Assembly: GCF_003334255.1 (NCBI RefSeq)
Contig: NZ_QOWU01000101.1
From: Escherichia coli
GTDB taxonomy: Bacteria > Pseudomonadota > Gammaproteobacteria > Enterobacterales > Enterobacteriaceae
Length of the DNA stretch: 6,464 bases
Direction: 5' to 3' (one strand)
This document shows positions 49 to 6,464 of the stretch, piece after piece; the stretch's first letter is position 1, and the number at the start of each line of letters is the position of its first letter. The notes under the pieces are model-generated. The model saw only the letters and a program-made list of their open reading frames with translations, ran no database searches and was not told where the DNA came from. The position numbers were made by a program, and so were the translations under genes.

Positions 49-106
49 AAAAAGGGTGGCAGAGCAGTCACGGAGTAAAACTGATACCGCCAAACGTCAC
101 CAGAAA
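49..106 (-). ncRNA. dicF: DicF small RNA (ftsZ-targeting sRNA of Qin-type prophages), mature 53 nt at 54-106 plus U-tract at 49-53
   Basis: The reverse complement of 54-106 reads TTTCTGGTGACGTTTGGCGGTATCAGTTTTACTCCGTGACTGCTCTGCCACCC, followed by TTTTT (plus-strand A5 at 49-53). This matches the E. coli DicF sequence as I recall it, with about one mismatch; the match is from memory, not from a search. It lies in the expected orientation, co-directional with the repressor-proximal leftward operon. Confidence 0.8.
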
Positions 107-440
107 ATTGATAACAGAGGGCGTTGCAGCGGGGTTGTCACTTAAGCGTATGGTCAACCTGACAACCCGGTGTCCTCAACGGGGAAGGAATAACCCCGCC
201 ATACTTACCGCCGCGCCATTTCGCGGAGTGCCACAACCGGAAGCGCGCGGTCGACGAAAATTTAATGACGACCTATACAGAGAGACTAACTTCGCCGGGC
301 GCTTTCGTGTTATGCCCTGACTTTTCAGGGATATATCCTTTTCAGTAAACTGTCAGTGCCGGATGCTCACCCGTGTCCGGCGCACGCACTCCACCTGACC
401 CGTGGAGAACTCCTTAATTACCAACCCTCAGGAGGGTGAA

Positions 441-524
441 ATGGATAAAAAGCAAATTGAGGCCCTGCAATCTATTATTGAAAAACAAGATGAAGCTATC
501 AGGATTCTTTTCATATCGCACTGA
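441..524 (+). CDS. Candidate 27-aa small protein (MDKKQIEALQSIIEKQDEAIRILFISH), antisense to the leftward early operon; may be the 5' part of a frameshifted gene continuing in another frame to 720
   Basis: One of the strongest translation-initiation contexts in the window: GGAGG at 431-435, 5-nt spacer, ATG at 441. The ORF ends at TGA 522-524. A second protein-like frame starts at ATG 526 and runs to TAG 718-720 (65 aa). Confidence 0.3.
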   Translation: MDKKQIEALQSIIEKQDEAIRILFISH

Positions 525-679
525 TATGATACTAAATATGCTTTCTGCATTAACGGCTGCGCTTGGTGGTACAAATACAAACGTATACCGCGAAGTTGTT
601 ATTCAACAGATAGATAAATTTGAAAAAACCATAGCAGGTATTAATGCTCATCTTGCAGAACAAGAGAAAGACCATGCTC

Positions 680-1093
680 TTATGGCAATTTCTTCAGTAG
701 CTCTCCCGAAAGTTGAGTAGTTTTAATTGTTGTTTTGAAATAATCACTGCTTTCACATTTGAGTGATTTCATGGCAATCCAAATGCGGGCCTCTGTGCCT
801 GCATTTGGTTCCAGTTGCTGTAGACGTTTTGCGTCTTCCAAAAGTAAGGCGATAATGTGTTTCAGCTTCTCATCATTTGCTTGATTCTTGTTTTCAGTCG
901 AATTCTGTCCGCCGAATAGGCGCTTCTCTTCATACAGACCTATAAAGGCACGACGCACGTTACCGGATATAGTATCGATGGTTTCCTTTTCTACAGTACT
1001 CAGGTCAAGAGTCGCCAGTTGAGAGCGAACCACATTAGATGCCATTTCCTGGAATGGTACTGGTAAATCTTTAAATTCCATCGTCAACCTCAT
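680..1093 (-). CDS. Hypothetical 137-aa protein, second gene of the repressor-proximal leftward operon; no family recognised
   Basis: Minus-strand ORF whose ATG (1093-1091) overlaps the TGA of the upstream YdfA-like gene (TGATG), suggesting translational coupling. Alternative start at ATG 1081. The predicted protein is helical and charged. Confidence 0.6.
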   Translation of the reverse strand: MRLTMEFKDLPVPFQEMASNVVRSQLATLDLSTVEKETIDTISGNVRRAFIGLYEEKRLFGGQNSTENKNQANDEKLKHIIALLLEDAKRLQQLEPNAGTEARIWIAMKSLKCESSDYFKTTIKTTQLSGELLKKLP

Positions 1094-1245
1094 CAGTCGG
1101 AGTTTCTTGCTAACCAGCGATGCGCGCCAGCTTCGGTTTTAAACGTTTTACTTTTGGTATACGTCATCGCGGTAAACGTGCCGTCCTGGTTGGGAAACAC
1201 GCCGCATACCAGAGATTCGCTGTTGCCAAGATCGATAGTATCCAT
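1093..1245 (-). CDS. ydfA: YdfA-like small protein (DUF1391 family), 50 aa
   Basis: The internal ATG at 1245 is preceded by GAGGT with a 5-nt spacer. The product MDTIDLGNSESLVCGVFPNQDGTFTAMTYTKSKTFKTEAGAHRWLARNSD matches my recollection of E. coli YdfA, the first gene after dicA in Qin. The 114-aa upstream extension in the ORF track has no SD and starts inside a hairpin. Confidence 0.6.
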   Translation of the reverse strand: MDTIDLGNSESLVCGVFPNQDGTFTAMTYTKSKTFKTEAGAHRWLARNSD

Positions 1246-2788: not shown

Positions 2789-3826
2789 ATGGCTAATGCC
2801 TGGCTCAGATTGTGGCATGACATGCCAAATGATCCCAAATGGCGAACCATTGCCAGGGTCTCAGGACAGCCAATCGCAACAGTGATGGCGGTGTATATCC
2901 ACCTTCTGGTGAGTGCGTCACGAAATGTCACGACATGTCACGGCGTGTCACTACGTGGTCACATTGATGTCACGACGGAAGATTTAGCAAGTGCGCTTGA
3001 TGTGACGGAAGACGTAATTGATTCAATTTTGCATGCAATGCAGGGGCGGGTTCTGGATGGTGACCTTATTTCCGGATGGGAAAAACGTCAGGTGCTGAAA
3101 GAGGACAATGGTAACGTTTCGCAAACGGCAAAATCCCCGGCAGAGCGCAAGAGAGCGCAGCGGGAGCGCGAAAAGCTGCGGAAATATGATGCTGATTGTC
3201 ACGATGAGTCACGACGTGTCACGCATCTGTCACGACAAGTCACGACAGATAAAGATACAGATACAGAATTAAACCCCACACATAACGCGCGCATGCGCGA
3301 GAGTGCTCCAACCGGTGAGTCGCATGGTGCGCCGTTGCAGACAGCCGAACCTGAATACCTGGACGGCCTGAGCGAACCGATCGGGAAATTTTCGATGACT
3401 ACTGTCTGGCAGCCGTCGTCGGATTTTCGACAACGGGCAGCAGTGTGGGGTATGGCTCTGCCTGAGCCGGAATTTACACCTGCTGAGCTTGCCGCATTCC
3501 GGGATTACTGGATGGCGGAGGGGAAGGTTTTCACACAGGTTCAGTGGGAGCAGAAATTTGCCCGCCACGTGCAGCACGTCAGGACACAGGTAAAACCAGT
3601 CAGCAAGGGGGTAAGCCATGCAGCATCAGGTGGCACGGCATCACGGGCAGTTCAGGAAATCCGGGCAGCACGCGAACAGTGGGAACGAGACAACGGATTT
3701 ATCAGCAACGGAAATGGCCTGGAAGCTGTGGGAGCTTATGGGGGAGGTGTATTCGAACCGCTGGACTCAGAAGAACGGGGCCGCACCTTCGAAGCTCTGG
3801 ATTGCCCAGATTGGCACGATGACTGA
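2789..3826 (+). CDS. Phage replication initiator (lambda O-like, iteron-binding replisome organiser)
   Basis: Long ORF immediately upstream of the P-like gene. Two arrays of GTCACG iterons are embedded in its coding sequence, as in lambda O/ori. ATG 2789 is preceded by GAGG; the GTG at 2783 is an alternative start. Confidence 0.8.
   Translation: MANAWLRLWHDMPNDPKWRTIARVSGQPIATVMAVYIHLLVSASRNVTTCHGVSLRGHIDVTTEDLASALDVTEDVIDSILHAMQGRVLDGDLISGWEKRQVLKEDNGNVSQTAKSPAERKRAQREREKLRKYDADCHDESRRVTHLSRQVTTDKDTDTELNPTHNARMRESAPTGESHGAPLQTAEPEYLDGLSEPIGKFSMTTVWQPSSDFRQRAAVWGMALPEPEFTPAELAAFRDYWMAEGKVFTQVQWEQKFARHVQHVRTQVKPVSKGVSHAASGGTASRAVQEIRAAREQWERDNGFISNGNGLEAVGAYGGGVFEPLDSEERGRTFEALDCPDWHDD
2915..2978. 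repeat. Iteron array 1: six direct repeats of (t)GTCACGAc at 10-11 bp spacing
   Basis: GTCAC begins at 2917, 2927, 2937, 2947, 2958 and 2969, i.e. one helical turn apart. Confidence 0.7.
3196..3248. repeat. Iteron array 2: five direct repeats of (t)GTCACGAC at 10-11 bp spacing, followed by an AT-rich segment
   Basis: GTCAC begins at 3198, 3208, 3218, 3229 and 3239. The AT-rich stretch AGATAAAGATACAGATACAGAATTAAA (3247-3273) and the 12-bp palindrome CGCGCATGCGCG (3288-3299) follow. Confidence 0.7.
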
Positions 3827-5344: not shown

Positions 5345-5643
5345 GGGTGAGGATTTATATCGCCGGTCCGATGACGGGATATGAAAATTTCAACCGCGAG
5401 GCGTTTCACAGGGCGGAAGATGCGCTGAAACGGGAAGGGCATACCGTTTTAAACCCGGCAGTACTTCCGGACGGGCTGACTCAACCACACTACATGGATA
5501 TTTGCATGGCAATGCTCCGTTGCGTGGATGCGGTTTACATGCTGAAAGGCTGGCAGCAGTCGGCAGGTGCAAGGGCTGAGCTGGCACTGGCGGAGAAACT
5601 GGGCCATGCGGTGATTTTTCAGGAGGTGGGCAGTGAATATTGA
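5341..5643 (+). CDS. DUF4406 protein, nucleoside 2-deoxyribosyltransferase-like fold, 100 aa
   Basis: N-terminal RIYIAGPMTGY and the later SAGARAELALA glutamate motif are typical of the NDT/Rcl-like fold. AGGAGGG at 5327-5333 precedes GTG 5341, which overlaps the upstream TGA. GTG 5347 is an alternative start. Confidence 0.75.
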   Translation: MRVRIYIAGPMTGYENFNREAFHRAEDALKREGHTVLNPAVLPDGLTQPHYMDICMAMLRCVDAVYMLKGWQQSAGARAELALAEKLGHAVIFQEVGSEY

Positions 5644-5872
5644 CCCGGCGATAACGATTGATATGGCCCTGAACACCGGCCTGGCACTTCTTGGTTATTT
5701 CTACATCATGTTCTGCAGCGGACGATGGCTGTCACTGTTGTTCATGAAAAAATGGAATAAACGCCGTAAGCAGGAGCAACGCCAGAAGGCAATGGATGCA
5801 TTTTCGAAGCCTTCGGAATTGACGGCATGGAACCAGGGGATCCAGCTCGCGCAATCAGCAGAGGGGGTGTAG
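5633..5872 (+). CDS. Small predicted membrane protein (one TM helix followed by a basic stretch), 69-79 aa
   Basis: Hydrophobic segment ALNTGLALLGYFYIMF followed by KKWNKRRKQEQRQK. GTG 5633 overlaps the DUF4406 stop by 11 bp; ATG 5663 is an alternative start. Confidence 0.45.
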   Translation: MNIDPAITIDMALNTGLALLGYFYIMFCSGRWLSLLFMKKWNKRRKQEQRQKAMDAFSKPSELTAWNQGIQLAQSAEGV

Positions 5873-5902
5873 TAATCCTTGTATATCGGAGTGAAGAGAA
5901 AA

Positions 5903-6217
5903 ATGACGATCACAAAACAACGAGTAGAAAAAATCATATATCGCCATGAAATGGGACTGAACAGCGATGTCACTGCCGAAGAGGTTTATGACCTGGCTGT
6001 ACTGGCGCTGAATTTATCAAATATCGCAAACCTGAAGCGATACGAGCTTGATATGGATGGTTGCGACTCGTGCGGTCAGGATTGTGGCGCAGATATGACT
6101 GAAGATCCTGATGGTGATTATGTCCTGTTTGATGACGTGGTTAAGTTGTTTGAATTTGATACAACCACTCAAAAGTTAGAAATCCCGGCAAAGGAGGCAG
6201 CCAGTGAGCAAGATTGA
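5903..6217 (+). CDS. Hypothetical acidic protein with a CDSCGQDC cysteine cluster, 104 aa
   Basis: ATG 5903 lies downstream of GGAG at 5888-5891; the track's 5879 start is a TTG. The C-terminal half is strongly acidic (DMDGCDSCGQDCGADMTEDPDGDYVLFDD). The stop overlaps the next gene's start region. Confidence 0.6.
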   Translation: MTITKQRVEKIIYRHEMGLNSDVTAEEVYDLAVLALNLSNIANLKRYELDMDGCDSCGQDCGADMTEDPDGDYVLFDDVVKLFEFDTTTQKLEIPAKEAASEQD

Positions 6218-6464
6218 CTATCAGGCACTGCGTGAAAAGGCAGAGAAAGCAACTAAAGGAAGCTACATCGTAGGGCATACATCTGTTAACCAGCACGGCA
6301 ATTTAACAGGAGTTTTTGTTTGCCAAAAATGGAAAGGAGAACCCGGTGGCGTGATTGCGGAATGTCATATTAACTGCCTGATTGAAACAGATGCTCAGGC
6401 TTATGCAAACGCTGAATTCATAGCAGAGGCTAACCCGGCTACCGTGCTGGCACTGCTGGATGAA
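6204..6464 (+). CDS. Ead/Ea22-like family protein, 5' partial (runs off the window end)
   Basis: SD AAGGAGG at 6191-6197 with GTG at 6204. The frame is open to the window end, and the translation ends ...ANAEFIAEANPATVLALLDE, the motif I associate with Ead/Ea22-like proteins. Confidence 0.7.
   Translation, partial: MSKIDYQALREKAEKATKGSYIVGHTSVNQHGNLTGVFVCQKWKGEPGGVIAECHINCLIETDAQAYANAEFIAEANPATVLALLDE

Follow-up and report, generated by a model that had tools for sequence, protein, structure and literature searches.

A 6,464-nucleotide stretch of Escherichia coli DNA (hereafter the window; NCBI RefSeq assembly GCF_003334255.1, contig NZ_QOWU01000101.1) belongs to a lambdoid prophage with a Qin-like early-left operon, and on its minus strand, between a YdfA-like gene and the small RNA (sRNA) gene dicF, it carries the short gene with which this analysis is concerned (the target). 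We find that the target is a real gene under purifying selection, beyond a chance open reading frame (ORF), and that its 133-amino-acid (aa) product is, as far as sequence comparison can tell, an in-frame fusion of two helical hairpin modules, here called head A and head B. Its position and shape point, tentatively and at a little under an even chance, to an accessory host-protein binder with the two conserved hairpins as its functional surfaces. The protein has existing entries in RefSeq (WP_001625307.1, 'hypothetical protein') and PHROGs; uncharacterised so far, it is one of the small accessory proteins that lambdoid early operons are well known to carry.

The two modules were delimited by PHROG sub-matches and by a HMMER scan of 1.84 billion representative proteins; below, P-numbers denote homologous proteins and L-numbers comparison loci, among them Cronobacter phage phiES15 (L009), Aeromonas phage pAEv1818 (L022) and Salmonella (L016-L019). 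Head A (MEFKDLP...NVRxAFxGLY) matches the N-termini of phrog_6937, phrog_2151 and phrog_9419. It stands at residue 1 of 65 head-A-only proteins of 31-208 aa whose tails are unrelated, and the form met most often, of 124 aa, ends in a C-terminus different from that of the target. Head B is found in 75 head-B-only proteins (39-153 aa), nearly always at the N-terminus. Homology to the head-A-only proteins stops at ...GLYEEK, and homology to the standalone head-B proteins starts at residue 69. From there to its end (residues 69-133) the target matches the standalone 71-aa protein P0134 over P0134's full length; the tail, ...TTQLSGELLKKLP, is homologous to the tails of the standalone 71-aa proteins of L010 (P0134) and L016. 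Given that the C-terminal half corresponds to standalone 71-aa proteins and that head A occurs separately with other C-termini, the target is a fusion in which head A has been joined in frame to an entire head-B gene, tail included, the joint falling in a linker predicted as disordered. The notion that the two heads are an internal duplication, which had been prompted by MAFFT misalignments, was ruled out (hhalign probability 0.2). PHROG searches with the variable tails of the larger relatives returned only families with no assigned function and one fragment resembling a methyltransferase.

Over the whole gene, the pairwise ratio of nonsynonymous to synonymous substitution rates (dN/dS) is 0.21-0.26 at dS 0.23-0.30, and it is because of this that we regard the target as a real gene. 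By segment, dN/dS lies between 0.1 and 0.4: the two halves and the linker each come to about 0.2, and constraint is weaker in the tail, at about 0.25-0.4. The tail reaches 1.0 in the comparison with RM9387, whose tail is replaced. For head B, copies from E. coli, Cronobacter and Shigella phage give dN/dS of 0.04-0.23 at dS 0.4-2.0. A role of head B as a conserved cis-acting DNA or RNA element was ruled out by the near-saturation of its synonymous sites: it is the protein, and not the DNA, that is conserved. Intact copies of the target are found with three immunity types, namely the repressor type of the window, RacR, and LexA-like or HTH_3 repressors. A mosaic junction lies within head A at positions 2501-2600 of L014/L015, where residues 1-32 come from a divergent head-A allele with dN/dS of about 1 against the window (replacement, not drift); the rest of that gene is identical to the copy in enteropathogenic E. 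coli (EPEC) E2348/69 and differs from the window by one residue.

The first-pass annotation had described a 137-aa protein coupled by TGATG to the YdfA-like gene. The minus-strand ORF of that length (680-1093) is present when counted from its first ATG, at 1093, and this ATG does share one base with the stop of the YdfA/DUF1391 gene. The usual start, however, is the in-frame ATG at 1081, which gives 133 aa and is not the coupled codon: it is used by the Prokaryotic Genome Annotation Pipeline (PGAP) and by nearly all database homologues (MEFKDLP...), every PHROG alignment begins at that Met, and GAGG stands 6 nt upstream of it. Both starts are supplied by a junction motif, TGATGAGGYTRACGATG, which holds tandem stops, the coupled ATG and a Shine-Dalgarno sequence for the second ATG. 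The same motif is repeated elsewhere, between ydfA and head A in L003, L004, L005 and L011 and between ydfB and head B in L010, and it may be a recombination linker between cassettes. The features of the region are collected in Table 1.

Table 1. Features of the target and its surroundings, in window positions.
Feature	Position	Strand	Basis or remark
Target coding sequence, 133 aa + stop	680..1081	-	PGAP WP_001625307.1 in the identical JE86-ST05 locus
Head A module, residues 1-55, hairpin H8-23 / H32-51	917..1081	-	block predicted local distance difference test score (pLDDT) 77-87
Linker, residues 56-68, fusion joint, predicted disordered	878..916	-	pLDDT <50 for residues 54-64
Head B module, residues 69 to about 112, hairpin H66-90 / H94-108	746..877	-	motif LKHxIALLLEDAKRLQQxEPNAGTEARI
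Tail, residues 113-133, predicted disordered	683..745	-	pLDDT <50 for residues 111-124; block means 47-50 from 111 on
Inter-cistronic junction TGATGAGGTTGACGATG	1079..1095	-	ydfA stop (tandem TGA TGA), overlapping ATG, GAGG, second ATG
YdfA-like gene (DUF1391), 50 aa	1093..1245	-	phrog_751, E 6e-36; PGAP 'DUF1391 family protein'
Immunity repressor, 139 aa	1510..1929	-	phrog_5736 'transcriptional regulator', E 6.4e-70
Convergent partner gene, 92 aa intact	441..720	+	both halves match phrog_18692; Shine-Dalgarno GGAGGG 5 nt before ATG
3'-end overlap of target and partner, 41 bp	680..720	.	same 41 bp in L010, L015, L016-L018
Conserved dicF leader, untranslated precursor part	106..426	-	92% identity to Qin
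DicF sRNA	54..105	-	Rfam RF00039, 70.1 bits vs gathering score 48, E 2.2e-14, full length

That the protein has 'no recognisable family' is true of the characterised families only. Pfam gave nothing significant for the target or for 41 relatives, NCBIfam gave no significant match for the target, the best PADLOC match (HerA, E 0.021, 11 bits) was not significant, and a PDB sequence search with the target and both head profiles was empty at that level; no catalytic, DNA-binding, nuclease, ATPase or other effector family was matched in these searches. The target is nevertheless a member of PHROG 1363 (E 1.8e-44, residues 5-135 of the 137-aa ORF against profile positions 1-126 of 139). This family, the three head-A families named above and phrog_30817, phrog_12693, phrog_32391 and phrog_2982 for head B contain its direct fellow members, all of them temperate-phage or prophage proteins; PHROG divides the two modules among several families, and neither PHROG 1363 nor its sub-families carry a functional annotation. 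Literature searches on ydfA/B/C, DUF1391 and early-left cargo genes found nothing on the target's protein family; one paper retrieved for ydfC was a directed-evolution study with no bearing on it.

An AlphaFold model built with a 48-row alignment (a single-sequence model was poor, pLDDT 61) consists of two helical hairpins, residues 8-23/32-51 and 66-90/94-108, with block pLDDT of 71-87. Linker and tail are disordered in the model, and there is no confident packing between the hairpins (predicted template modelling score 0.37). The all-helical model and a composition of 19 D+E against 19 K+R bear out the earlier description of the protein as helical and charged. Structure prediction, proposed at the same time as a route to function, did yield this helical model, but fold searches with it returned generic hairpins only. 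The likeness to Gp4 of Pseudomonas phage LUZ24 (PDB 6yse; 15% identity) lies in a generic helical hairpin, a resemblance and not evidence of homology. The protein is near neutral (isoelectric point, pI, 6.6), its grand average of hydropathy is -0.47, and no transmembrane segment is found, the maximum Kyte-Doolittle value over a 19-residue window being 0.38.

The first 1,500 bases of the window are identical (100%) to a prophage adjoining yccA in JE86-ST05, and about 96% identical to a prophage of EPEC E2348/69. On the minus strand the order is repressor, hairpin, ydfA, target, a 574-bp stretch and DicF, followed in the full locus by dicB, a DUF1482 gene, an exonuclease and an integrase. The repressor has a weak C-terminal match to the DicA family NF007257 (residues 86-136), and Cro/YdaS-like and YdaT genes diverge from its gene. 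A 114-aa ORF (1093-1437) is an upstream extension of the YdfA-like gene. Between the repressor gene and the ydfA promoter region, at 1431-1467, is a perfect hairpin with a 16-bp stem and T-runs on both strands that looks like a bidirectional terminator; it is the sole terminator-like hairpin on the operon strand from the repressor to DicF, and from it to about 1300 the sequence is unrelated to Qin. No promoter-like site was found on the minus strand of 680-1300 in a consensus scan, a weak kind of scan. The target thus lies between ydfA and dicF, on the operon strand and with neither a promoter-like nor a terminator-like site of its own, as befits a member of a dicBF-type early-left operon, and by analogy with Qin (PMC10448788) it is probably co-transcribed with that operon. 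A DicA-repressed promoter that lies upstream of ydfA gives rise in Qin to a single ydfABC-dicF-dicB transcript (PMC10448788); an antirepressor relieves the repression, and the promoter fires spontaneously in a subpopulation of cells (PMC10448788, PMC5069750).

DicF, predicted downstream of the target by the first-pass annotation, is indeed there, at a score well above the gathering threshold. In the 3' arm of its terminator stem this copy reads CCACC instead of the CCGCC of K-12, and the change produces a C.A mismatch in the cmscan alignment. In Qin, RNase E and RNase III release the sRNA from the ydfABC-dicF transcript (PMC5069750, PMC10448788). The 570 bp between the target's stop and DicF hold, as had been stated, no sizeable minus-strand ORF (none above 50 aa in 106-679), but they are not empty: they contain the dicF leader and, on the plus strand, the partner gene discussed below. 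Just upstream of that gene, at 355-410, are two short hairpins (GCCGGA..TCCGGC and CTCCAC..GTGGAG), which are kept in Qin, in L010 (the first only) and in Salmonella L019, even where the flanking DNA differs; they may serve in the mRNA leader or in the processing of the DicF precursor.

The target had been thought to take the place of YdfB and YdfC, and comparison of the loci does not uphold this. Against K-12 Qin, nucleotide identity is 86% in ydfA, 92% in 106-426 and 98% in dicF; beyond the ydfA stop homology is lost until about 426, over a stretch of 666 bp that is unalignable. YdfB and YdfC are, like the target, small proteins of the ydfA-dicF segment with no function assigned. Homology to them was rejected: the target has no match to phrog_2061 (YdfB) or phrog_1744 (YdfC), which the K-12 proteins do match, and head B as a YdfC homologue was ruled out by hhalign (probability 0.2). 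Occupancy of the slot is not mutually exclusive. In L014/L015 the homologue of the target comes after ydfA-ydfB-ydfC, and in L012/L013 after ydfA and a ydfC homologue. Of 5,426 complete E. coli genomes, 494 have a ydfC|head-A junction and 751 a ydfA|head-A junction. Given this co-occurrence with ydfC, the target is an additional cassette between ydfC and the dicF leader, which Qin lacks just as this prophage lacks ydfB/ydfC. Qin, which keeps the leader up to about 15 bp from the would-be start of the 92-aa partner gene, is a reduced form of the operon. Cassette-matching DNA is present in about 915 of the genomes, mostly as head A alone, and the full cassette of the window in 124.

The comparative genomics thus agrees with the first-pass annotation that a variable accessory slot lies near the repressor, and shows ydfB/ydfC to be neighbours of the target and not alternatives to it. 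In Cronobacter phage phiES15 and Shigella phage 75/02 Stx the corresponding place near the repressor, before kil, is taken by a head-B gene, and in several metagenomic and Salmonella prophages the head-B gene is the first or second after a DicA-like repressor. In L010 and phiES15 it follows ydfB, where Qin has ydfC; in phiES15 the unannotated 42-aa YdfB homologue lies at 3349-3477. Related loci carry toxin-antitoxin modules in the region, namely HigB with a helix-turn-helix partner (L011 1397-2061) and ParE/PaaA2 (L014 1181-1652) between repressor and ydfA, and ParE/Phd close to the immunity region in L019 (1032-1594), which supports the view that cargo accumulates there. PGAP annotation of the identical JE86-ST05 locus includes a DUF4752 gene with a frameshift (window 5633-5949) and an Ea22-like gene that is truncated (window 6204-6464); with the broken 92-aa gene, these suggest a prophage that is accumulating defects.

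Small soluble non-enzymatic helical proteins of early operons, such as lambda Kil, CIII and Ral and the DicB protein, typically bind host proteins; Kil and CIII, at least, are largely helical and act in this way. The target resembles these four in its early-left position, in size (theirs is 50-130 aa) and in being non-enzymatic, and differs from them in its fused two-module build; no sequence similarity to any characterised protein was detected. On the reading that we favour, the target would be a soluble, non-enzymatic protein of two independent hairpins on a flexible linker, which arose when the N-terminal module of a very common prophage gene was fused in frame to head B and its tail. Given the synteny with Qin and the lack of a promoter-like site of its own, it would be silent in the lysogen and made only on derepression, on the transcript that carries DicF and DicB, both inhibitors of cell division. 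Once made, it would bind and modulate a host protein, as other small helical early-left products do, and so would act as an accessory host-takeover factor and not in a core phage function.

Several observations weigh against this account. There is no homology to any characterised protein, and position and shape are all that speaks for a mode of action. Of the head-only ORFs, many are short or run on into non-coding sequence (P0085 and P0115 are examples), and part of the head-only 'family' is, for this reason, recombination debris. The transfer of timing from Qin is weakened in that the Qin repressor and promoter region differ, with 26% identity upstream of 1300. Finally, a recurrent convergent partner hints at a more specific role.

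This partner is a plus-strand gene whose 3' end covers the last 13 codons and the stop of the target. It is intact in E2348/69 (WP_000358771.1, a 92-aa coding sequence) and frameshifted in the window, where the alignment places an extra T in the T-run at 508-511 and PGAP calls a 76-aa remnant (490-720). Homologues with 71-73% identity have the same convergent layout in L010 and in Salmonella L016-L018. More widely, the 3' end of a head-B gene overlaps a convergent small gene by 30-41 bp in seven distinct loci (the window with its close relatives, L010, L016-L018, phiES15, pAEv1818, L023/L024 and L025), which span prophages and phages of Escherichia, Salmonella, Cronobacter and Aeromonas and metagenomic contigs. 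The overlapping partners fall into three unrelated families, of 92-93 aa (phrog_18692), 93-97 aa (phrog_8894) and 61 aa. The head-B tail co-varies with the partner family, and beside phrog_8894 partners a conserved tail extends over about 36 aa, much more than the overlap itself covers.

The observations on the partner raise the possibility that the target serves self-immunity. The convergent gene would be lysogen-expressed cargo, perhaps defensive or toxic, that is neutralised by the early-made head-B half through its partner-specific tail, and the partner would in addition be switched off by transcription running against it through the 41-bp overlap. The design would be that of type II antitoxins, in which a conserved head is followed by a partner-specific tail: head B would stay constant, and its tail would be matched to the partner. 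The recurrence of the overlaps, the co-variation of the tail, and the strong Shine-Dalgarno sites and conservative substitutions of the partner genes all speak for such a role. Nevertheless, we consider it unlikely. Co-variation may be mere physical linkage within one recombination cassette, and uncoupled cases exist: in L011/L012 the tail persists next to another antisense gene that does not overlap, in RM9387 the tail is truncated and the partner missing, in L019 a remnant of the partner is present but head B is not, and 75/02 Stx and L026 have no partner. In the window it is the partner that is frameshifted while the target is intact. No convincing promoter for the partner was found by scan or by eye, and partner proteins have no significant match in Pfam, PADLOC or NCBIfam. 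The pair also departs from type II toxin-antitoxin systems in being convergent, with overlapping ends, and not co-transcribed, and neither protein has a significant match to a toxin or antitoxin domain.

A broader form of the same idea, which we hold to be quite improbable, is that head-B proteins and their 3'-overlapping partners constitute an unrecognised family of two-gene modules beside DicA-type phage repressors. In such modules the partner would be an effector expressed in lysogeny for defence or host manipulation, and head B its early neutraliser, built of a constant hairpin and a partner-matched tail; the 133-aa target would be a neutraliser fused to head A, linking two otherwise separate early functions.

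It had also been suggested that the target itself is an exclusion or defence factor, by analogy with rexAB of lambda and sieB of P22, which are accessory genes near the immunity repressor. RexAB and SieB are made in the lysogen, RexB and SieB as membrane proteins. The target shares with them the repressor-proximal accessory slot, and toxin-antitoxin cargo lies nearby in related loci. It is unlike RexB and SieB, however, in having no hydrophobic segment and, in the consensus scan, no promoter-like site of its own, and it sits within an operon that in Qin is silenced by the repressor (PMC10448788). The lack of a significant PADLOC match and of any nuclease, ATPase or other effector domain adds to this. 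A product of the same kind of operon is relevant here, in that expression of DicB is reported to protect E. coli against phage infection (bioRxiv 10.1101/708461 / PMC6832061). We regard an exclusion role of the target as distinctly improbable.

Very improbable, in our estimate, is a neutral origin, in which the chimeric frame persists only through its position within the DicF precursor and the protein is inert. The region is highly mosaic, with junctions within head A (as in L014, where residues 1-32 are replaced), after head A and after head B; truncated or frameshifted relatives are many (P0079, P0121 and P0085, for example), and few genomes have the full cassette. Against these stand the dN/dS of about 0.2 in both halves and the linker, a frame that is intact in prophages of three immunity types, and the strong constraint on head B as a protein across genera. 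The dN/dS result in particular weakens the neutral explanation.

Finally, a regulator of the operon acting in antitermination, RNA processing or the lysis-lysogeny decision (N- or CIII-like), on the dicF leader or on a YdaT/CII-like switch, is in our estimate very improbable as well: the target is promoter-proximal and directly upstream of a structured and conserved leader of 320 nt, head-B genes are first or second after the repressor in several phages, and lambda N holds the corresponding position, but the protein is near neutral and has no arginine-rich motif of the kind found in N-type antiterminators (its N-terminus, MEFKDLPVPFQEMASNVVRSQ, has one Arg, and head A has a pI of 4.9), we know of no similarity of the target to N or CIII, and it is absent from Qin and many other prophages that have the same operon and leader.

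Operons of the dicBF type are present in most E. coli strains, often in several copies, and encode known modulators of cell division, metabolism and phage sensitivity. Head-A-matching DNA is found in about one E. coli genome in six, and the operon as known from Qin is the reduced version. The cassette that precedes dicF is made of shuffled hairpin modules, often with an antisense gene. The fused two-headed build of the target protein and the recurrent convergent partners are worth a note, with no new mechanism demonstrated, and experiments can now be directed at small objects, the two hairpins (some 40-55 residues each) and the three families of overlapping partners. As it stands, the target is one more conserved hypothetical prophage protein. 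If its hairpins bind defined host proteins, or if the convergent pairs are functional, it would be an addition to the catalogue of devices by which prophages take over the host or secure immunity against themselves.

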